20,000 nt of DNA from Albugo candida (taxonomy: Eukaryota), in NCBI GenBank assembly GCA_040437565.1, contig JBDOQK010000063.1, positions 174,861 through 194,860 on the forward strand, read 5' to 3'. Made by a program: the position numbers and the translations under genes. Each line of letters begins with the position of its first letter. The stretch's first letter is position 1. Below, in pieces: positions 1-20,000 of the stretch. The notes under the pieces are model-generated. The model saw only the letters and a list, made by a program, of their open reading frames with translations, was not told the DNA's origin and made no database searches.

Positions 1-1790
1 ATAGAATGTACACCAAACCTCCAACCTTTTCCTTCTCCACAAAACTGTGCAGCACGGGGCCAAAACTTTCGCATTCTTCGACAACGTCCTCCTGAATTTC
101 TAAATGCCAATCAGGATTCCCACTTCTCTTCTCTGCTTGCGCGTCAAACATATTTTTCACCACAAAACAGAATGAGGGAACTCCTTCAATCTTTTCAGAA
201 GCCAATGCGGCAGCTCGTTCCGTTTGCGATGTCTCTGGTTTCCCATAAGCATTGGATCCTACATTTGCGTACATAGTTGACCCTAAAGCAGGATTCGGAA
301 AGATATCTTTTCCACCGGCGAGTTTCGCCATCAAAGCGGTTCGAGATTGTGAATTGAGAGCCATTCCAGCGCCTTCATCATCGTCCAACTTCCACGTATG
401 CGACCCGTCCATACAACTAAAGCTTCCCATTCCCATTCCACCCAACCCCGCATTCTCATTAACCGGTCCGAGCCGTAGAAAATTTCCGTGTAGTTCTAAA
501 CCGTTTCCTTTCGATAACGACAAATTCGCTTCCTGTGGAGTGCCAAACTGTATAAATCCATACCCTTTCGAACGGCCCATTTCGTCACGATTTATATTAA
601 CGGAAACGACTTCGCCAAATGAGCTAAAGACCACACGCAAATGATCTTCCGTGACATTTGTATGCAAATTACCACAATAGATACGACTTGCGGCGGATAA
701 CGAGCCACCCGAAGCCATAGAGCTCGCAATTGCTGCAGCCAAAGCAGAATTGGAACCATTCGACTCACTCGTTCCAAGCCAATCGGAATTACGCAGAGTG
801 TTTGTCATGACGGTATCTTTCTTTGCAGCAAAGTTCTTTTCCGCTTCAGAAGCTTTGATCATGACAGGGAAGATCTGAAACTCTGGTATTTGGCCATTTA
901 ACAGTAAGACTTTGGGCACATCTTCCAAATTTGACATTTCGACGTATGCGAATCCTTTGGAGCGATTTGTAAATTTGTCGCGAATCAGTAACACGTGTTC
1001 CGTTTTGCCGACTTTGTTAAAATATTTTTCAAGATCTCGTTCGCGCACTTTTTGTGTCAATTGTCCGATGAAAACAGTTCGATGATCGCGCGTTAATTCC
1101 ATCAGCTCTTTCTGTTTGGCTTTTTCGGCTCGTTCAGCTGACGTACTCCGCCTTATGACTTCTGTTACCTGGGCTGCTGATTTCGATCGACTTGGTTTCT
1201 TTCGACTTGAACTTTTGCTTCGACTACGGCTGGGCGTTCCATTCGAATGATCGCGGCGTTTTCTACGACGTCGACTTGATCGATGACGATCTTTGGAATC
1301 GGATCTTTGACGCCCAGAGCGAGAGCGAGAGCGCGATCGAGAACGTGAATGCGATCGATATCGATGCCGTGGCCTACGAGATCGACGGTCACGGTCACGG
1401 TCACGGGTACCGCGAGACCGTGACTTCATACGGCGCTCTGTTCGATTGTGTGGATCCTTCTAAAATGTATACAAAACGATAAAAAGATAGAGTTAGCGAT
1501 GGTCAGAACAGCAACCACACAATATGCAGTGGATAGTGTGCAACACACAAACTCGACATCCACTCCAAGATGGGATCACTGGCAAAAAGCAATGTCAGAG
1601 CTTTGCGTTGCATAGATAGTGATATACACACATGAACGCATGTAAGTGTACATTACGAATCGCTTTGTACCTCTATGTTTTTGTCATGTGAATGACGATT
1701 TGGTTGCTTTTTTGCATGCGACGAAGGAATTGAAGAGTTTCGAATTCCTTCTTCCAAAAGTGAGTCAATTTCATCTTCAGCAGCGCCCAT
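1..1790 (-). CDS. RBM39: RBM39/CAPER (CC1-like) splicing factor, 3'-partial; exons 1790-1671 and 1459-<1
   Basis: ATG at 1790 (MGAAEDEIDSLLEEG...KNIE), then a phase-0 GT..AG intron at 1670-1460. Exon 2 encodes an RS/RD-rich domain, RRM1 (TVFIGQL...RSKGFAYVEM), RRM2 (RIYCGNL...RSKGYGFIQF), an RBM39-type linker (LDDDEGAGMALNSQSRTALMAKLA) and the start of a UHM/RRM3 (CFVVKNMFD...EIQEDVVEECESFGPVLH). The frame is open to the window edge. Confidence 0.93.
1310..1410 (-). repeat. Hexamer coding repeats in the RS/RD domain
   Basis: Plus-strand (gagagc)n near 1315-1332 and (acggtc)n near 1385-1406 encode RSRSRS and RDRDRD on the minus strand. Confidence 0.8.
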
Positions 1791-1861
1791 CGTCCTTAAA
1801 TGTGTAAGGAACAGGCGATTCTCGTTACTAACTTTTTTCTTTTTTCTTTAATCAAAAGCAC

Positions 1862-1947
1862 CCAATCGGAAGGACTCTTTGATTGGATATTAACATTCTG
1901 ATTGGTCATGGATATTTTTTAATATACACCAATCGTCTCCCGAGACG
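1862..1947. promoter_or_regulatory. CCAAT-box cluster upstream of RBM39
   Basis: CCAAT at 1862 and 1929 and ATTGG at 1882 and 1901, all in a CCAATC/GATTGG context, plus the palindrome CGTCTC-cc-GAGACG at 1934-1947. Confidence 0.5.
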
Positions 1948-2036
1948 GTATGCGCCGCTTTCCTTTGTTATTTACTATTTTTTATAAAAACATGCAGATT
2001 ATAAAAAGTCTAGGCATATCGCTGTGCATAAAGCAG

Positions 2037-3314
2037 CTACTGGCGCTTGTGCTTTGAGTACATTTGAAATCTATCCTGCTCATTGCATTTTATAGCAAGA
2101 CGTGCCAAATCGGGACGATGTTGTTGTAGTTTCTGAAGCCATTTCACTGCCATTCGTTTTCTTCCGGATCGTGTCTTGCGCCATACACGTTCGAAATTCT
2201 GCGAACTGCAGTAGTTCTGAGTGACTGCAACAGTGTCTTCCACATTAAGTACGGCATGCCACCATCCTCCAGGTACAAAAACAGTTTGACCAGGATATTG
2301 CATGAATTCAATACATTGTAACACATCAAAACCATACGCCTTTTTGATTCGTGGTAAAATAGTTGAAAAGTAATTGATAGCTTCATCATCCTCTCCAGAA
2401 CGAATAAATTCTTTTCCTTGAACGATCTTCTTGCCAACTTGATATGGGAATAGAATCCATCGCTTTCGCCCGCTGATGAGTGTATTCCAAGCACTTGTCC
2501 CAAGAGGATCCACGTGCACGCACGTTCCGGAACGTTTTGGACCAATAAGAAACCAACGATACGGCGGTCGTCGTCGTTCTCCCACAAACACAAATAAATC
2601 CTCTGGAAAGTATTTTGGTACAGAATACTCGTCTAAGAGAGGTTTGGTATCGCTTCGTTCATCAAAGCTACTATCGAAAATGTATAAAGGGCTGTCATCG
2701 GTTTGAATCTGGACCACAAGTAAGCAATACGATCCTAGTTTAATGTGGGCGCATACCTTCAGATACCTTAGAAAGTATTTTAGTTTCATGCGAATAGTTC
2801 TTCCTTCATCGTCTTCACCGCATTTGAGCATTGCCGATTTGTACTTTCTTCTGAGATGCTTGAGCGACCACTCTGTCACCGCTTTCCACCGTTGTTCTTC
2901 TGGCACACCATCGATCACTACCGGTATATACCGTTTCTCATACTCGGTGATGAAGCGACTGACGCTTAGATCACGACAATGCTCCCGCTGTATCGCGTTT
3001 GCTGATTCATCCACAGTGTGGTCACATACATCTTTTTCAGCAAATCCTTCCCGATCCCACGCATCGAAGGAAATATCTAAAGCGAGTTTTCATCTCAATA
3101 TCAACATAACGTGCACCACATTAATTCATTGTTGACCTGTTCGATGTCGGCGTTTCGCGTCATTCACTAAAGTCGTCAGCTTTGACGAGACCTTGTGAGG
3201 CTGCACTACCTGTGAAGGAAACGCAGACTTGTATGAAGCACGTTTGTGATCATCTTTTCTTGAGTGAGGTGATAAACTAATTGAGGATAGAGCTTTTCTT
3301 TTTCGACTCATCAT
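2037..3314 (-). CDS. JMJD6: JmjC 2OG/Fe(II) oxygenase JMJD6 (PSR); exons 3314-3137, 3076-2757, 2708-2037; about 389 aa
   Basis: JMJD6 signatures KCGEDDEG, DDSPLYIFDSSF, RRPPYRWFLIGPKRSGT, the HxD motif in CVHVDPLGTSAWN, and PGGWWHAVLN...VAVTQN. GT..AG introns at 3136-3077 (60 nt) and 2756-2709 (48 nt) give a 1170-nt in-frame CDS. Confidence 0.95.
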
Positions 3315-3820: not shown

Positions 3821-5545
3821 ATGACACAGACGGTTCGGAATGAACCAATCAAAGTACCCTCTTTACATACCTTTACCATACCGGTTCTAGACGGTACGAC
3901 GTCGGTCGTTGTTGCAAGCGCCGCTACATCGTAGGAACCCTTCCATCCGACCGAAATACGTGCCTCCGTCAGCTTCTAAAGCATCCTTGCAACAAAAGGT
4001 ATCCGCAGTAACCAACTTCTCATTTTGTACCAGTTGGGTTACAATTACGCCTCAAATATGCTCACTTCACTCGTTTTCGAACCCGAAAGTGTAACCCATT
4101 CGACACTCATGCAAAAAAATGATACCCTTCAGAGTGTAACCCCACTCCAATCAGCTCCCAAATCTCCAAGGAATCCACATTCGAAGGATTTGAATCAAAA
4201 AAGTCGTTTACAAAGTGCGCAACAAGCGATACAAACCGATAGCTACTTCCATGAGTTTGAGAAAAGCAAACTGTTGCATGCACTTTCACATTGTAACCCC
4301 ATCGTAACTCAATTTAACCAAAATCAATACAATTCCCTCAATCAAGCAGAAGAGCGTTTGCTTATACAAATCAAGTACATTGAGAACGCAAAGAAGCAAA
4401 TTCATGCCAACACACATCCCGATGTACTTGGTCGCTTTACAGCAATGCAAGAGCAAGAGCAAAAAATGAATTTTCAAGCCAAATGTAAACAGCAGTATCT
4501 CCAGCATTGTGCGACACTTCTTTTCATGTACGAATGCGAACAAGCGAATGAGGAATTTGAGTCTAGATGTGAGAATTTGAGGCAAAGTATGTTAAATGAA
4601 ATCGAAAACGAAATGGAGTTTTTAACTGCTCAGCGAAAAGGAACGCGCGATTTCTGTCGAAGTTTACGGAAAGTGAATGCTCGCAAAACAAGAAGTTCCC
4701 GATCGAAAAAAGAAGACGGAAGTTCTGTCTGTGGTACAGCAACAAACATATTTTCCAACACGAGCTCCACGACATCAAATGGGAATTTAGAAAAAGCGGG
4801 TAAGAATTGTCCCGGGAAGAAATCGAATGGGAATCAAACAATTTTGGAGAAAACATTGAGCTCTTCCGAAGTGAATCACGATTTACAAGAGTTGTATTCC
4901 AGTTTGAACGCCATTGAATCGAAGTCGAGTGGTGACGGTACGATACATCACGTGATCATTCTACTTTTAATCGAATTCAATGGATTGTATGTGTTGCAGA
5001 TGGACAAGAACAGGATNNNNNNNNNNNNNNNNNNNNNNNNNNNNNNNNNNNNNNNNNNNNNNNNNNNNNNNNNNNNNNNNNNNNNNNNNNNNNNNNNNNN
5101 NNNNNNNNNNNNNNNNCGTGATCATTCTACTTTTAATCGAATTCAATGGATTGTATGTGTTGCAGATGGACAAGAACAGGATTTGATCCTAGCAAAGTAT
5201 CATCGCGGGAAGCTTTTGTATCACGAAGTGATTTTGGATGAAAATGATGAGATTGTCGTGTGGGATACGCTGAGACCAAGTGCGCATTTTGGGATCGTGC
5301 AGAGCATCACAGCGAGTGAGATTTCTGTTCTGAGTGAGCGAGGCGGTATTCAATTTATATCGTTAAGCGATTTACGAACAGCAGCTTTTCGCCTTGAGAT
5401 TGTTACAAATGCGAATCGGAATCAGCTGATGGCGCAAGTATCAGGTTTTCATGCTAGTAGAGGAAAGAGTTCATTTCGTTCTGATCCGTCGTATGCGCAT
5501 TCCTGGCAAGACTCCAGGCGAAGAGAGCATATGGTTGCAACTTGA
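3821..5545 (+). CDS. Sds3/BRMS1-like coiled-coil protein (putative Sin3-HDAC subunit); start uncertain (3821 if two mini-introns are spliced, otherwise 4058)
   Basis: Coiled-coil segment HPDVLGRF...YECEQANEEFESRCENLRQSMLNEIENE resembles the Sds3 family. Intron 4938-4999 plus collapsing the gap overlap joins ...SSGD to DGQEQDLILAKYHRGKLLY in frame. Candidate 5' exons are 3821-3853 and 3891-3998. Confidence 0.65.
5017..5116. other. 100-N scaffold gap with overlapping flanks
   Basis: 4951-5016 is identical to 5117-5182 (66 nt). Confidence 0.95.
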
Positions 5546-6385: not shown

Positions 6386-8123
6386 ATGTCACGTGTAGGA
6401 ACGTTAGTATGCATAGCGTTATGCGCACTCCAATGCGTTGTGTGGAACGCAAACAGCTCAGCGGATCCAAACGGAACACCCGATCCGCTCTACTCTTCCA
6501 GTCATGCCAATATAACTTACCTCACCGATACGAACTGGAACAGCACTATCGGTCGCAATCAGAAGCCGTGGCTTATCGAATTCTATCATCCATTGTACGT
6601 GTTTTCTTCTTGCGATTAGCTCTCGTTCTCACCTGTATCTTTTTATATTAAATTCCGATTGCAACTATATCTGCAATTGCCAATTTATCCAATACTAAAT
6701 CCGTAATAACATCAGCTGTCCGCATTGCCGCCATTTTGTGAAAACTTTTGAGCGCGTTGCAGCGTATTATGCAAACATTCAAACGATCAATATTGGTGCA
6801 ATCAGTTGCATGGATCACGTGAAATGCCGTCGCATGAAAATTACCGGTTTTCCGACCCTTATGGCTTATAACTTCAATCCGAAGAAATTGGGAGAAAACG
6901 AACGCGTTATTGGAACACATACGCTTGTAGAAGTGATCAAATATGTCGATAAACAGTATCCTAATTACACAGATCCGAAAGTGCCCACATTGAGCACAAA
7001 TGTGACCACAGAGCCCGTGCAGAAGAAGGAACCTGAAGAGAAGAAACCGGTGGTAATATGGGAAGAATCTAAAAAGCCGATGAACCAAACAACTCGACTG
7101 CAAGATGCTGCATCAGCTTTCATTTTTGGATTGAAACAGGGAGTTTTCATGGGGCGAGAAGTTTTGGAAGATATGGAACTAGACGCACTTAAGGAATGGC
7201 TTCGTGTTGTCGCCAAACGATTTCCTGGATCTGCGAATCGAGAAATCATACAAAATCTGTATACAACGATATCCGATACTGCTATTCTCGACTTTGATTC
7301 GTGGGATAAGATACTTAGTGCATGGCAAGTCAATTCCACTGCAATGTTCCATTCAAAAATCAATGTATCCGACGCACGACTTCCAGAATGGCAACGTATT
7401 GATAATCTCTTCATAGGCGCAGGTGTCACATATCGAGCGTGTGCTTTGTACACTTGTGGGCAGTGGAATATGTTTCATATGATGACGATGAATCAGTACG
7501 AACAACACGATGACACACTTTTAATCGGTGTGATTGCCACAATTCGTCGTTTTATGAAGCATTTCTTTGGCTGCGTGCAATGTCGCGATCACTTTCTCGA
7601 ATACAACACACTCGAGCGAGTCGTTGAGATCTCAAAAGCTTCCGATAAAGCACTCGCATTAAAGCGTTGGCTTTGGACAATGCACAATTCCGTCAATCGA
7701 CGTGTCAGACACCCCATTTGGCCTAAAGAGAGTGATTGTCCGACTTGTGGTACTGATGGAAAATGGGTACAAGTGCAAGTCGACAAATGGCTCGAAGATA
7801 CGTACGTGTTTAAAGAACCGGTTTTACCGCAGTTGTCAACGGCTACCGGTCCGATATTGTGGAAGCCTAAAGACGCTGAGATGCAAATCAGAAATCCGGC
7901 AAATACGTATACGGATAAAGAAGGCGATGTGAACGTTCGAGTTGCGAGTACAATTAAAGTTCCTGTGATGACACATTCGACTCAATCGAAAATGTCGGCT
8001 TCGGCAGGGCTTCCGTCATTGGATATATTTCTGTGGTATTTACTTCCGATTGTTGCACTTGGATTTTATGTGGTACACGCGCGTGTACGAAAGAACCGGT
8101 ATCAGTTATTGAGACCAAGGTAG
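6386..8123 (+). CDS. QSOX: Quiescin sulfhydryl oxidase (thioredoxin + Erv/ALR domains); exons 6386-6594 and 6716-8123; about 538 aa
   Basis: Signal peptide MSRVGTLVCIALCALQCVVWNA. Removing intron 6595-6715 creates the Trx motif WLIEFYHPFCPHC. The Erv domain shows YTCGQWNMFH, FFGCVQCRDHF, WLWTMHNSVN and WP...CPTC. A C-terminal TM helix reads IFLWYLLPIVALGFYVV. Confidence 0.93.
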
Positions 8124-15739: not shown

Positions 15740-17400
15740 GGGACAGCATATCGCCCTAGACATTTTCATCCACAGATACATACTCAATCACATAAGGAAA
15801 AGTTTGCATGACCATTGCCCATCGTTGAAGCTTGTCTGCTTAATATCTTGCAATGTTTGTATCCACGCTGTCTGGATCGAAAGTAGATTTTAGATTTCGA
15901 TGATCAGTGAATAGATGGAAACCCCGCTCTCGCAGTAGGATATACTCCAATCGTTAACACGTCTCCACAATGACAAAAGCTTCCTTCTCTACTATTGCCC
16001 ATCGTGCTGCAGCTCCCTTGAACGACCCACTTATAAATGCGAGTGGTACATGTACTTGCTCGCTAGGGGGATTTCCAACTCACCGGGCCCCACTTAAGTA
16101 ACAATAGCTCCTCAGTGATCTTGAGAGGCGTCCATATAGACACAGACCTACCAGTTCTCTTTCGGGTGTGCTATCGGTACCATCGCGCAGAGTGCGTCCT
16201 TGATCAATTGGAAACACTGGTCGTGGGATGGCCCCCATTCATGGTCATCCAATCGGACTTGCACCAACTTTCTCTCCTTTCTGCTCCCGCCGCTTTCATG
16301 GTCTTCTACAACAAATTATGGAGGGTTTGTACCAGCGAGGAGTAGTTTGGTATATTACTCCGCATCCAATTNNNNNNNNNNNNNNNNNNNNNNNNNNNNN
16401 NNNNNNNNNNNNNNNNNNNNNNNNNNNNNNNNNNNNNNNNNNNNNNNNNNNNNNNNNNNNNNNNNNNNNNNCCGGGCCCCACTTAAGTAACAATAGCTCC
16501 TCAGTGATCTTGAGAGGCGTCCATATAGACACAGACCTACCAGTTCTCTTTCGGGTGTGCTATCGGTACCATCGCGCAGAGTGCGTCCTTGATCAATTGG
16601 AAACACTGGTCGTGGGATGGCCCCCATTCATGGTCATCCAATCGGACTTGCACCAACTTTCTCTCCTTTCTGCTCCCGCCGCTTTCATGGTCTTCTACAA
16701 CAAATTATGGAGGGTTTGTACCAGCGAGGAGTAGTTTGGTATATTACTCCGCATCCAATTTACCGCACAGAAAAATTGCTGAAGGTCTGCAGCCGTGCCT
16801 GGTCGTCCCATTTCTTATAATCCTTTAATCCGCTCGGCACAATGACTCACTCCCTTTCCAGAAATTGTTTGTCCGCACCACACCGTTTCGAAATAGAGAA
16901 AACAGCATGTTTTCGGATGTAGCTTCACTCCAAATTCTTCACATCGATTAAGAACGGTTCCTAAAACATCAAGAAGCTTTGTTTCTAATTCAGCATAACC
17001 TAAAACGTCGTCCAGCCATACTTGAACACCCTGATTCAAAACGCGTTTCAATACTCGCTCCGCAACCTGCTGTGCAAAAGCTACAGCATCTGTTGAACCC
17101 TTAATAACACGAGTTCCCGTATAAAGTCCTTCCGGTGTGACCACAGTAAAATAATCACGACTGCTTTCATCTAGCGGTAGTTGCCAGTAGAAACGAAAAC
17201 AACCCAGCGAAAAGTAGCAGCGTGATTCATCGAGACTCGCGAGAACCACTTTCAAATGTGGCAGGGGCCACGTCATCGGTATTGTCAGATCATTGACTCC
17301 ACGAAGGTCCCCCACCGTCATTCGATAGCTTCCGATATCTTTCTTTGCTACAATACGAGCCGCGCAACCCCATCTTGAGTCGGGATTTCGAAGCATAAGG
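15740..17400 (-). pseudogene. Reverse transcriptase and RNase H, disrupted
   Basis: RT motifs YRMTVGDLRGVN, YWQLPL and VQVWLDDVL. RNase H motifs PLAFISGSFKGAAARWAIVEKEAF, FHLFTDHRNL, KLQRWA and DMLSRW, with in-frame stops. Confidence 0.9.
16372..16471. other. 100-N scaffold gap with overlapping flanks
   Basis: 16083-16371 is repeated at 16472-16760 (289 nt). Confidence 0.95.
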
Positions 17401-17833
17401 TTATGCTCTTCCAGACTGGATGTCTCGCCATCACTGGTTTAGTACCTTCCTTTATCTGTACCTTAAGGGGAGGGACTTTGACTGGGGGATCTGCTGCGAA
17501 CTCCACCCGAAAAAGATCCTGATACCGATAGAGTAATGATGCCAGTCGTAAAAGTGATTCTTCCTTCGCACCATTTTCTCTTGCTTCTACGACTTTTGAC
17601 TCAAGAATTTCTTTAACAGCATCTCTTTGGGCCTCCGCCTTGACCACCTCCGGTAGCATCATAAAGCTTTCTCTCTCATCAAAGTCAATGCTGTCGTTGG
17701 CATAGCACGCTTTGTCGCATTTCTCCAACACACGACGCGAAGGGGTACTGCCTCCCGTACTGTCTTCGATCCCCGAAGCGTCCCAATTTCGTTTTCACTG
17801 TCTTGCTACTCCCAGTATAGCCTCGGTGGAAAA

Positions 17834-18160
17834 TCAGATCAGCTCCATCATGCCACGATCGATCAATAATGTCAGCGATTTGTCGCTTTCGTTTACCATC
17901 ACATCCAGATTTCTCCAGATTAAAGGTCCACTCGACGTAGGAAATTCTACACAATCCAAAATGGCTCGACGCTTTATCCATATCGGCGTGTCTCCGAGCG
18001 TATTTATCTTCATTGGCGTGGTGTTTCGACTCACACGGACAAATGCCTTCGATTCTAACACGTCCACTAATCCCGCGGGTACTATTCTGCAATCCGAGCC
18101 AGAGTCCAATAGAGCACATACATTTTGTATGCCATCCACGGTAGAGAAGAACTCCCCCTT
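17834..18160 (-). pseudogene. Retroviral-type aspartic protease
   Basis: VCALLDSGSD active-site motif, in the same frame as gag after a TAA. Confidence 0.85.
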
Positions 18161-19090
18161 TTATCTCAGTAGAGCAGCTTTCTTCACATCCGGTGCTTTC
18201 GCGTAATATTCTTCACGATTGTTTTGTCGGTTTCTTAGGACAGCTTCCGCTTCGCCTGGTCCGCACCGCGGGCATCTTCTGACCGAATGTTTCATGCTTT
18301 TACACTTCAAACATTCAAATCTGTTCCGCGGCGGACCAGATTGCAACTCCCGTTGCCCCTTTTCCTCTTCTTTCGTCCTTTGATTCTGGACAGGCACACG
18401 TCGTTGCTGAACAGGAGACAATCGTGTTTTTGTTGCCGCAACATTCCGTATCGACTCCACACGGATTGCCTCAGGCTCCCATTCCATGAAAGGTCTCATT
18501 TGTCCTAGACACCACTCGTAGAACGCCACCGGTTTCTTCTTCAGATGTTTATTCGTGTCCATATTCAGCTTCTCTTGGATTTTACGCCTGAAAGCTGCCG
18601 GCTCTAGACCTTCAACAATCCAATCCACGATCGTTTTTGCATCCACCTGCTCCACATAAAGTTGCAGACCCTCCTCCTCCAATACGCGATAGATTTGATT
18701 TCGAAGCCGCGACATACGAGACCCAGCATTCATTAATCGTGTCCTCATCCTAAAATTTTTCATTATTTCATCTATCTTGCCCAGCTCGAAGGAATCTGTT
18801 GTAATAGCTTCTGTGAAGTAGTTTATCCAATCCTCTTCGCCCGCATCTTCCGGTTGCTTACACATTTCGAATTTTACGATCTGAGCACGTGTCCTAGCAT
18901 CCACGCACGCTGACACCGGTATCACAAAGGGCTTGTTCTGACACGTCTCATACGCGAGCAATGTATTGTAGTACGATTGGTAGTTTTTCACAAATTCCCG
19001 CCAATCCCGCGACGTCTCTCCGGTGTAGATCGGATGCTTTGGCAATTGCGGTGCATTTGAGATGCGATTATCTCCCGACACATCCATCAT
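18161..19090 (-). CDS. Retrotransposon Gag
   Basis: Open frame of more than 300 codons with the CLKCKSMKHSVRRC (Cx2Cx4Hx4C) knuckle; the likely start is MMDVSG at 19090. Confidence 0.8.
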   Translation of the reverse strand: MMDVSGDNRISNAPQLPKHPIYTGETSRDWREFVKNYQSYYNTLLAYETCQNKPFVIPVSACVDARTRAQIVKFEMCKQPEDAGEEDWINYFTEAITTDSFELGKIDEIMKNFRMRTRLMNAGSRMSRLRNQIYRVLEEEGLQLYVEQVDAKTIVDWIVEGLEPAAFRRKIQEKLNMDTNKHLKKKPVAFYEWCLGQMRPFMEWEPEAIRVESIRNVAATKTRLSPVQQRRVPVQNQRTKEEEKGQRELQSGPPRNRFECLKCKSMKHSVRRCPRCGPGEAEAVLRNRQNNREEYYAKAPDVKKAALLR

Positions 19091-20000
19091 ATCCACACCC
19101 CCTGTCAATCGTCGCACCCTTACGGCAGGATCAGCAGGATGCGAATTTTTTTGGGGAGAACTCCAATGTCTACGCTTAAAAAATATCGCGTGTCCACAAG
19201 AATTGCATCGAGTATTCTTCGGGCGGTAATGTTGGAGCAAATGTTCATGTATTCACTCAGACAGTATATAAAATCATCTGTCTAATCAGCAACTGATATG
19301 AAGCGATGGAAAGAGATCCAACAGAAACTCGAATGCCACCGTACAACGTTTTCATTTTTCTAGTCACATCCATGGATGCGGAATCTTTCGTCTCGTTTAC
19401 TGCTTGTATGGAAAGGTCACGAATGCGGTCATGATCTCCAGAACATGGATTGCGACACATTCGAAGGAGCACAAGGATTCTTAACTATCTCAAGGAAGTT
19501 CATCACAGCGATCCCTGGGCCTGATGTTCATGATCACACAACAAATCGTATGGATGTGACGCAAATTATCAACCGGGGACAACAATTCAAGTCTGGTAAA
19601 ACTGTTGCTGACGCTGTCGGGAAATAGCTACGTGAAGTTTCTTCATTACGGAGTTTGTATTCCTTCGACATTTAATCTTCACTCGAAAGCACTCGAGATA
19701 TAACGGAATGTGCGCTATTCAATTCGTTGGGGAATGTGGAATTCAGTACACTCACATCCGTACAAATGCGGCTTTCGATATCGTTTAGCAGCCAGAAGAA
19801 AGGAACGTCAGGTGTGGTTCAATTTCGTATCACGAAAGCTCGACTGCACTCCAAAGAAATTACCAAAGGTTTGCTTGGTTTATGTGAGAATTGGATGCAA
19901 ATTGATGATTCGAAAACGCCATCAGAAAGTGCTCAAAAAGATGAAATCGAGGACCGTATCATTGGAAAGTATGCGTCCCAAGTAGGATATCATTGTGTAT

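Follow-up and report, generated by a model that had tools for sequence, protein, structure and literature searches.

An unproductive splice form from the single coding-region intron of an Albugo RBM39 gene and a predicted hairpin at its acceptor

Could an oomycete splicing-factor gene hold, in a single intron, a means of limiting its own output? This question is raised by a locus of Albugo candida at the start of the 20-kb stretch of DNA analysed here (hereafter, the window), where a gene for the splicing factor RBM39 contains an intron with two complete acceptor sets. The proximal one is followed directly by an in-frame stop codon. We asked whether both acceptors are used, what each transcript encodes and whether the alternative form is better read as regulation or as waste. 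The coordinates, including those of exon 1, intron 1, both acceptor sets and the TGA, had been given by an earlier sequence-only reading and proved exact to the base.

An RBM39 gene with one long intron

The minus strand of positions 1-1790 codes for an Albugo candida-like RBM39 orthologue. The long reading frame at 1459-2 matched the Pfam families RRM_1 (2.7e-33, in two stretches) and RBM39linker (4.4e-16), both above the cut-offs, and comparison of its full public counterpart (P0122) with PDB chains recovered the UHM (2.9e-19), RRM2 (5.8e-18) and RRM1 (4.8e-17) of human RBM39. An RS-rich N-terminal stretch is evident in the translation, and the protein has the complete layout of the RBM39/CAPER-type family, namely an RS-rich N-terminus, two canonical RRMs, the linker between RRM2 and RRM3 and a C-terminal UHM-type RRM. 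Its closest named relatives are oomycete proteins with 59-68% identity, some of which carry the source name 'RNA-binding protein 39', and its 90% cluster includes records named Albugo candida.

The coding part of exon 1 (1790-1671, minus strand) starts with the ATG at 1790-1788, comprises 40 codons and ends in phase 0. It lies within an RNA contig spanning 1671-1845 and is identical to the start of the public model P0122. It carries the N-terminal motif EDEIDSLLEEGI, which is present at the start of 10/10 full-length oomycete orthologues examined; similar motifs were found in two of six more distant relatives (P0084 and P0100). Intron 1 (1670-1460, minus strand) runs for 211 nt from GTACAA to TTTTAG, and the exon junction in P0122, at which ..DKNIE is joined to KDPHN.., corresponds to 1671^1459. 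Exon 2 (1459-1, minus strand) begins KDPHN, encodes the RS-rich region, RRM1, RRM2, the RBM39 linker and the start of RRM3/UHM, and runs past the window start. Because the reading frame of exon 2 remains open between 1459 and the window start, and because a related sequence (P0001, 532 aa) is one uninterrupted ORF on a 28-kb contig, intron 1 is the sole intron of the coding region. Some of the public gene models at this locus are mis-modelled.

Intron 1 had been singled out as unusually long relative to its neighbours, and this was borne out, the two RNA-confirmed neighbouring introns measuring 48 nt (2756-2709) and 60 nt (3136-3077). It is thus about four times longer, in a comparison with two verified introns of a JmjC gene.

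Two acceptors and their transcripts

The 5′ splice site GTACAA lies at 1670-1665 (minus strand, as are all features of the intron described here). Downstream of it, the proximal acceptor set consists of a branch-site-like CTGAC at 1598-1594, with its A 15 nt ahead of the proximal AG, the T-rich tract gctttttgcCAG downstream of CTGAC, and the 3′ splice site CAG at 1581-1579, with its AG at 1580-1579. Its use creates the joint 1578^1671, skips 92 nt with GT..AG ends and brings the in-frame TGA at 1578-1576 into place as the first codon after the joint. As had been deduced from the phase 0 end of exon 1, translation then stops directly after codon 40: 1671 joined to 1578 reads MGAAEDEIDSLLEEGIRNSSIPSSHAKKQPNRHSHDKNIE and then the stop. 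The distal, productive set consists of a branch-site-like CTAAC at 1496-1492, whose second A (1493) lies 32 nt before the distal AG, and the 3′ splice site TAG at 1462-1460, which gives the joint 1459^1671 of P0122.

Intron 1 contains six AG dinucleotides, and two of them, the proximal and the distal, fit a strict definition of an acceptor (YAG, a preceding tract of ≥70% pyrimidine and CTRAC 8-45 nt upstream). Across the window, this strict set occurs twice on the minus strand (0.10 per kb) and not at all on the plus strand, both occurrences being the acceptors described here. When the intron interior was shuffled 20000 times, 3.1% of the shuffles contained an internal set of this strictness, rising to 18.3% if the branch motif was relaxed. 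Among the other four internal AG dinucleotides, those at 1601 and 1552 would put exon 2 out of frame and those at 1663 and 1563 are in register; whichever of them is used, a stop follows after 1 to 41 codons. That an intron-internal acceptor should lead to an early stop is therefore nothing special in itself.

For evidence from RNA, the contigs of four sequencing runs (X1, X5, X6 and X7; 17 runs were listed) were compared with the window. The library type of X1 is a guess, and we took it to be cDNA-type from its spliced contigs. In one of these, of 1271 nt, both JmjC introns have been removed (joints 2708^2757 and 3076^3137; 48 and 60 nt; GT..AG, minus strand). The sequence-only reading had proposed to look for the junction 1671^1578 against 1671^1459, and both joints are present in spliced contigs of X1. 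The productive joint 1459^1671 skips 211 nt at a contig depth of 169, and the proximal joint 1578^1671 skips 92 nt at a contig depth of 66.1, each with GT..AG ends; such depths are rough values per contig and unsuited to ranking. In the contigs of both joints, the shorter side has 28 letters plus 2 ambiguous ones, which is below our 31-letter bridging rule. Since both joints occur in X1, the proximal AG is read here as a used 3′ splice site that places a stop at codon 41, and we consider it very probable that this acceptor is truly used. The alternative form was thus found in the one run (1/1) with spliced contigs over intron 1. At the intron junctions, the other runs gave no cover: X5 contributed low-depth, DNA-like unspliced pieces, X6 spans 1977-3200 only and X7 spans 108-804 only.

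Further X1 contigs define the forms present. One spans 1432-1580 (depth 88.4), is continuous across the distal acceptor and ends exactly at the proximal AG, and another spans 1551-1700 (depth 46.6) and crosses both the 5′ site and the proximal AG without a break. If both splice forms exist, an assembly graph has to branch at 1461, 1580 and 1671, and contigs end at precisely these positions. Unspliced RNA of RBM39 intron 1 is also present in X1 at the contig level. The two neighbouring JmjC introns were without unspliced forms, and the bin over the 48-nt one has the depth expected without an unspliced contig.

The suggestion that a downstream GT (gtcgag or gtgtgt) closes the retained segment as a cassette exon did not hold. 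Among the contigs, none joins an internal GT to 1459, and the contig 1432-1580 is unbroken; the event is therefore best described as an alternative 3′ splice site that retains 1578-1460. A minor cassette form may exist, as contigs show presence rather than absence and can miss rare forms. We also considered recursive splicing after the proximal step and rejected it: a GT is recreated only through the last base of exon 1, with a frame shift, and no such joint occurs among the X1 contigs.

The transcripts differ in what they encode. Splicing to the distal site gives an mRNA for the full RBM39 protein. Splicing to the proximal site gives 40 residues and then TGA, which turns ~1.7 kb of what was coding sequence into 3′ UTR; the segment retained in this mRNA (1578-1460, minus strand, 119 nt) includes the TGA as well as another upstream ORF, of 18 codons. 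The first in-frame ATG of exon 2 (1429-1427, minus strand; MKSRSRG..) could serve as a re-initiation start for a protein minus its first 50 residues. The unspliced RNA meets a stop 5 codons into the intron. NMD without a downstream exon junction would need a long-3′-UTR mode, and any NMD of the proximal form would be of this type because the stop has no intron or exon junction after it. These results indicate that the RBM39 gene produces a real unproductive splice form.

A predicted hairpin at the proximal acceptor

The folding analysis predicted a newly noted element at the proximal acceptor, a 31-bp RNA hairpin of 74 nt (1612-1539, minus strand) that encloses the proximal branch site, the T-tract and the CAG. 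The hairpin, which was selected after inspection of the whole-intron fold, has a predicted MFE of -28.0 kcal/mol (z -3.39), with 0/200 shuffles as stable; windows of 76 nt as stable as this numbered 17 of 7760 on both strands, a GC-corrected rank of 0.06%. The antisense of the segment folds to -19.1 only, as expected if G-U pairs matter. The fold of the whole intron is unremarkable (z -0.85; 39/200 shuffles fold as well).

In the predicted whole-intron ensemble, the proximal signals are largely hidden. The bases of the proximal CTGAC are paired with probabilities of 0.96, 0.03, 0.99, 0.99 and 1.00 (one bulged U) and the proximal CAG with a probability of 0.85. The UUUUUG tract is mostly unpaired (0.07-0.18 for its last 5 bases). 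Also predicted to be unpaired are the 5′ splice site (mean pairing probability 0.06) and the distal branch adenosines (0.12 and 0.04), the flanks of the latter being paired. Of the two hairpin arms, 1612-1576 and 1575-1539, the 3′ one contains the internal GT sites gtcgag and gtgtgt. Pairing between the flank of the 5′ splice site and that of the distal branch site was predicted at -16.6 kcal/mol (P 0.012 against shuffles, 0.024 against window segments); as this is modest and post hoc, we keep it as a minor note only.

RNA structure controls the choice of 3′ splice site in yeast introns whose hairpins hide or loop out AGs. As in those introns, the predicted Albugo hairpin contains a competing acceptor; it is located after the 5′ site and before the productive branch site, and it would shorten the effective distance to the distal site; unlike the yeast cases, it is a prediction from one sequence.

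Regulated switch or splicing noise

The precedent invoked by the sequence-only reading, autoregulation of vertebrate RBM39, is real. According to the accessible part of the published account, human RBM39 favours inclusion of exon 2b (also called exon 3), a poison exon in its own transcript, and the form with the premature stop rises with UPF1 knock-down, which marks it as an NMD target (PMC10477243). That part of the account further reports that RRM2 binds N(G/U)NUUUG and RRM1 binds stem-loops, that a CUCUUUG immediately before the poison-exon AG is essential for RBM39 dependence, and that an inhibitory stem-loop reduces poison-exon inclusion (PMC10477243). The poison exon is 98.6% identical between human and Xenopus, as given in the available portion of another report (PMC6547761).

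The Albugo intron has a counterpart to the tract. CTTTTTG (1589-1583, minus strand), within the proximal pyrimidine tract, fits N(G/U)NUUUG and ends 2 nt before the AG at 1580-1579. A second match, CGTTTTG (1478-1472, minus strand), ends 10 nt before the distal, productive AG. These two matches do not represent an enrichment in intron 1 (shuffle P 0.36), and the window holds 72 on its minus strand and 86 on its plus strand.

As far as the accessible vertebrate account allows comparison, the Albugo gene resembles the exon 2b system in several respects. The proteins are orthologous (RS region, RRM1, RRM2, RBM39 linker and UHM), an early stop arises from an unproductive event close to the 5′ end of the coding region, the key element, a putative one in Albugo, is a 3′ splice site whose AG has a xUxUUUG tract directly before it, and a stem-loop, in Albugo a predicted one, lies over the regulated splice signals. 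The two also differ. The Albugo event is an alternative 3′ splice site keeping 119 nt, whereas the human event is a cassette exon, and the Albugo gene, having one intron, has no exon junction downstream of the stop, unlike human RBM39. The Albugo stem-loop would cover the branch site and the AG, whereas the human one, in the part of the source available, pairs an exonic site to the poison exon's 5′ splice site. Feedback, NMD and RBM39 binding were shown in human cells, and in Albugo they are proposed. The Albugo site may therefore be said to work like the RBM39 circuit in its anatomy, the shared layout being a UUUG-type tract before an AG at a stem-loop. We hold the likeness to anatomy because the motif is common and one copy also precedes the productive acceptor.

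More broadly, splicing-factor genes of animals, plants and fungi acquired unproductive splicing repeatedly and independently, and the AS-NMD of SR and other splicing-factor genes resembles the Albugo case in having a stop-containing isoform beside the productive one, according to the part of a review available here (PMC4379411). The text of that review (Lareau and Brenner 2015) makes no mention of oomycete, stramenopile, Phytophthora, protist or RBM39.

These observations can be assembled into a mechanism. In the single RBM39 intron, two 3′ splice sites would compete. The predicted hairpin would hide the proximal branch site and AG while the CUUUUUG tract stays exposed, and the 5′ splice site and distal branch adenosines would remain unpaired; the hairpin would thereby partly silence a proximal site that is strong in its own right. 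The exposed tract and the stem may be bound by a splicing factor, the simplest candidate being RBM39 as with human exon 2b, and an abundance of this factor would raise use of the proximal site. Transcripts would then be diverted to a form without an RBM39 product, perhaps to be degraded by NMD of the long-3′-UTR type, and the net effect would be negative feedback on the RBM39 level. With RNA support from one run and short junction contigs, we put the probability that the alternative acceptor is a functional homeostatic switch of this kind at about 0.5; its main rival is splicing noise. A role of RBM39 itself as the sensor is more tentative than the switch, and we regard it as possible rather than probable. 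The sizeable steady-state level of the stop form is not what efficient NMD leaves, and this counts against a switch.

As splicing noise, the proximal joint would be waste: a strong cryptic acceptor sometimes picked, without regulation, in an unusually long intron. The acceptor is a textbook match, so that no regulator is needed for its use, the joint is known from one run, and the motif count is at chance level. The conservation we saw covers exon 1 and the first 18 bases of the intron: read-through ORFs of 45 aa, made up of exactly these parts, were found in two other Albugo clusters (2 hits among 2 candidates), one of which also contains a protein of A. laibachii Nc14. The read-through ends are ..IEVQGDS, ..IEVQSDS and ..IEVQNDS, each followed by a stop, and these ORFs indicate that a second Albugo species has retained exon 1, a GTNCAR intron start and the stop after 5 intron codons. 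Metagenome scans with an alignment of 12 oomycete proteins (84 pattern matches) and with the single protein P0036 (38 pattern matches) yielded no confirmed related locus, a translation search with the minus-strand ORF of the intron interior gave no candidate, and the plus-strand 63-aa frame of the interior had 0 hits among 1.84 billion representatives.

Against noise, the proximal joint makes up ~28% of the spliced-joint depth (66.1 of 235, on the rough depth scale noted above), a high share for an error in a splicing-factor gene that is essential, and selection could eliminate the site through a single base change. The gene's sole intron is ~4 times longer than its two verified neighbours, and the strand-specific 31-bp hairpin is predicted exactly at the proximal site. 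In this class of genes, moreover, such forms are usually regulatory, as stated in the available part of the review (PMC4379411). On balance, we judge noise to be a serious but rather unlikely explanation of the alternative form.

A different proposal is that the alternative mRNA is made for its products, either a free 40-residue N-terminal peptide or a shortened RBM39 from the ATG at 1429-1427. The stop directly at the joint would give the widely conserved N-terminal motif as a clean 40-aa product that is exactly exon 1, and the next long ORF begins MKSRSRG. This proposal strikes us as very unlikely; the ATG at 1429 could be reached only by re-initiation past upstream ORFs of 40 and 18 codons. 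Little more can be expected of the idea that the long intron hosts a structured non-coding RNA, such as a small-RNA precursor hairpin, with the internal acceptor incidental. Few local folds predicted in the window are as stable as the 74-nt, 31-bp hairpin, but this hairpin has no Rfam family match, and a hosted RNA would leave the complete acceptor set and the immediate stop unexplained. Rfam at the gathering threshold gave 0 matches in the whole window; a permissive scan of 1300-2000 gave only snoR30, on the other strand, inside exon 1 and at chance level (E 8.3, 13.7 bits against a gathering threshold of 60). A tRNA search of the window found none, and a scan for bacterial-type promoters and terminators, irrelevant to a eukaryote, found nothing. 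Finally, it is hardly credible that the 1578^1671 joint is a chimeric contig of the assembly rather than RNA: although its shorter side has 28 letters in one contig of one run, and joints with sides under 30 can be due to repeats or to other organisms, the sequence had pointed in advance to exactly this joint, base for base; the joint has GT..AG ends and a depth of 66, far above the error level, none of the stretch matches a second place, and three independent contig ends fall at the same fork points.

Beyond a homeostatic switch in Albugo lies the bolder idea of an ancient autoregulatory logic common to oomycete and vertebrate RBM39. A structured RNA module near the 5′ end of the gene would hide a stop-creating acceptor and display a UUUG-type tract, and RBM39 would read this module, with RRM1 on the stem, RRM2 on the tract and U2 recruited by the UHM, and thereby shut down its own mRNA. 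The only intron would then be kept solely as a sensor, and the conserved 40-residue N-terminal motif would perhaps be freed as a peptide. We consider this idea as a whole speculative and unlikely.

Oomycete genes have few and short introns, and to our knowledge there are few descriptions of alternative splicing in the oomycete pathogens' own genes. At the level of search listings, no published work on oomycete RBM39 was found, the matches being papers on host splicing, and the only listed paper naming both RBM39 and an oomycete concerned a nematode effector. Intron-length figures for Albugo were not found in the accessible part of PMC5795050. At this locus, the one intron of a core splicing factor yields an unproductive splice form that is base-exact and RNA-supported. 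If the switch is true, it would add an oomycete case to unproductive splicing and an RBM39 case outside vertebrates. The Albugo RBM39 intron offers a compact 211-nt, one-intron model for asking whether splicing-factor homeostasis by unproductive splicing reaches the stramenopiles, whether unproductive splicing can work without a downstream exon junction, and whether the mechanism by which RBM39 selects 3′ splice sites is ancient or convergent.

Probable separate transcripts for the JmjC gene and RBM39

In the public protein model P0123 (1085 aa), a single product comprises the JmjC gene, the sequence between the genes (..HNENRLFLTHLRT..), RBM39 and, downstream, a small protein; this fusion spans positions 1–3300 and runs past the start of the window. 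Aligned RNA contigs stop near 1845 and resume near 1890. Because the contigs break at this point, they argue for separate JmjC and RBM39 transcripts, contrary to the fusion in P0123.

Within the JmjC gene, the 48-nt intron on the minus strand (2709–2756) is in frame and free of stop codons, and its 16 codons read VCAHIKLGSYCLLVVQ. This intron is absent from the spliced contigs of two sequencing runs, X1 (cDNA-type) and X6, whereas it is translated in both P0123 (source NCBI) and a second protein model, P0127 (source Logan only). Thus, the 16 residues are probably an insertion in both models, with no counterpart in the mRNA. Separately, X1 and another run, X5, each contain a contig matching 2238–2272, and that of X5 matches 2075–2100 as well; 134 other letters lie in between, with loose ends beyond. 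These contigs are a diverged copy or the JmjC-like sequence of another organism.

Predicted RNA structure in and near RBM39 intron 1

In intron 1 of RBM39 (1460–1670, minus strand), sequence flanking the 5′ splice site (1659–1685) can pair with that flanking the distal branch site (1470–1495; -16.6 kcal/mol; P = 0.012 and 0.024), which serves the productive acceptor, and the predicted pairing puts GUACAA opposite both branch adenosines. Such a pairing might aid use of the distal site through proximity, or it may have arisen by chance. On both strands, the 76-nt segments predicted to fold most stably anywhere in the window come from the coding repeats of the RS region (GACCGT-type, 1346–1445). 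Their stability is a low-complexity effect, which matters for the ranking of structures.

Other features of the window

On the plus strand, a weak Sds3-like frame (3980–5545) is broken by an N run (5017–5116), and a further frame (6699–8123) combines thioredoxin and Erv1/Alr (sulfhydryl-oxidase-like) domains. The minus strand carries a reverse-transcriptase fragment (RVT_1, 1.8e-13) within a string of broken frames at 16815–19252, adjoining another N run (16372–16471). This region looks like a decayed retroelement.

RBM39 exons and their counterparts

The RBM39 gene of A. laibachii is apparently divided over two public models. In P0137, exon 1 is spliced to an acceptor ~22 nt within exon 2, and the RS region is then in the wrong frame; P0124 begins only at MELTRDHR. 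Position 356 of the A. candida window, the third nucleotide of exon 2 codon 368, is G but reads A in all three runs that cover it (X1, X5 and X7); the discrepancy reflects either variation between strains or an error in the assembly. Exon 1 (1671–1790) codes for just the acidic N-terminal motif of RBM39, (E/D)x(I/F)D..(L/Y)LE, which is common to oomycetes and more distant relatives (public protein records P0084 and P0100).
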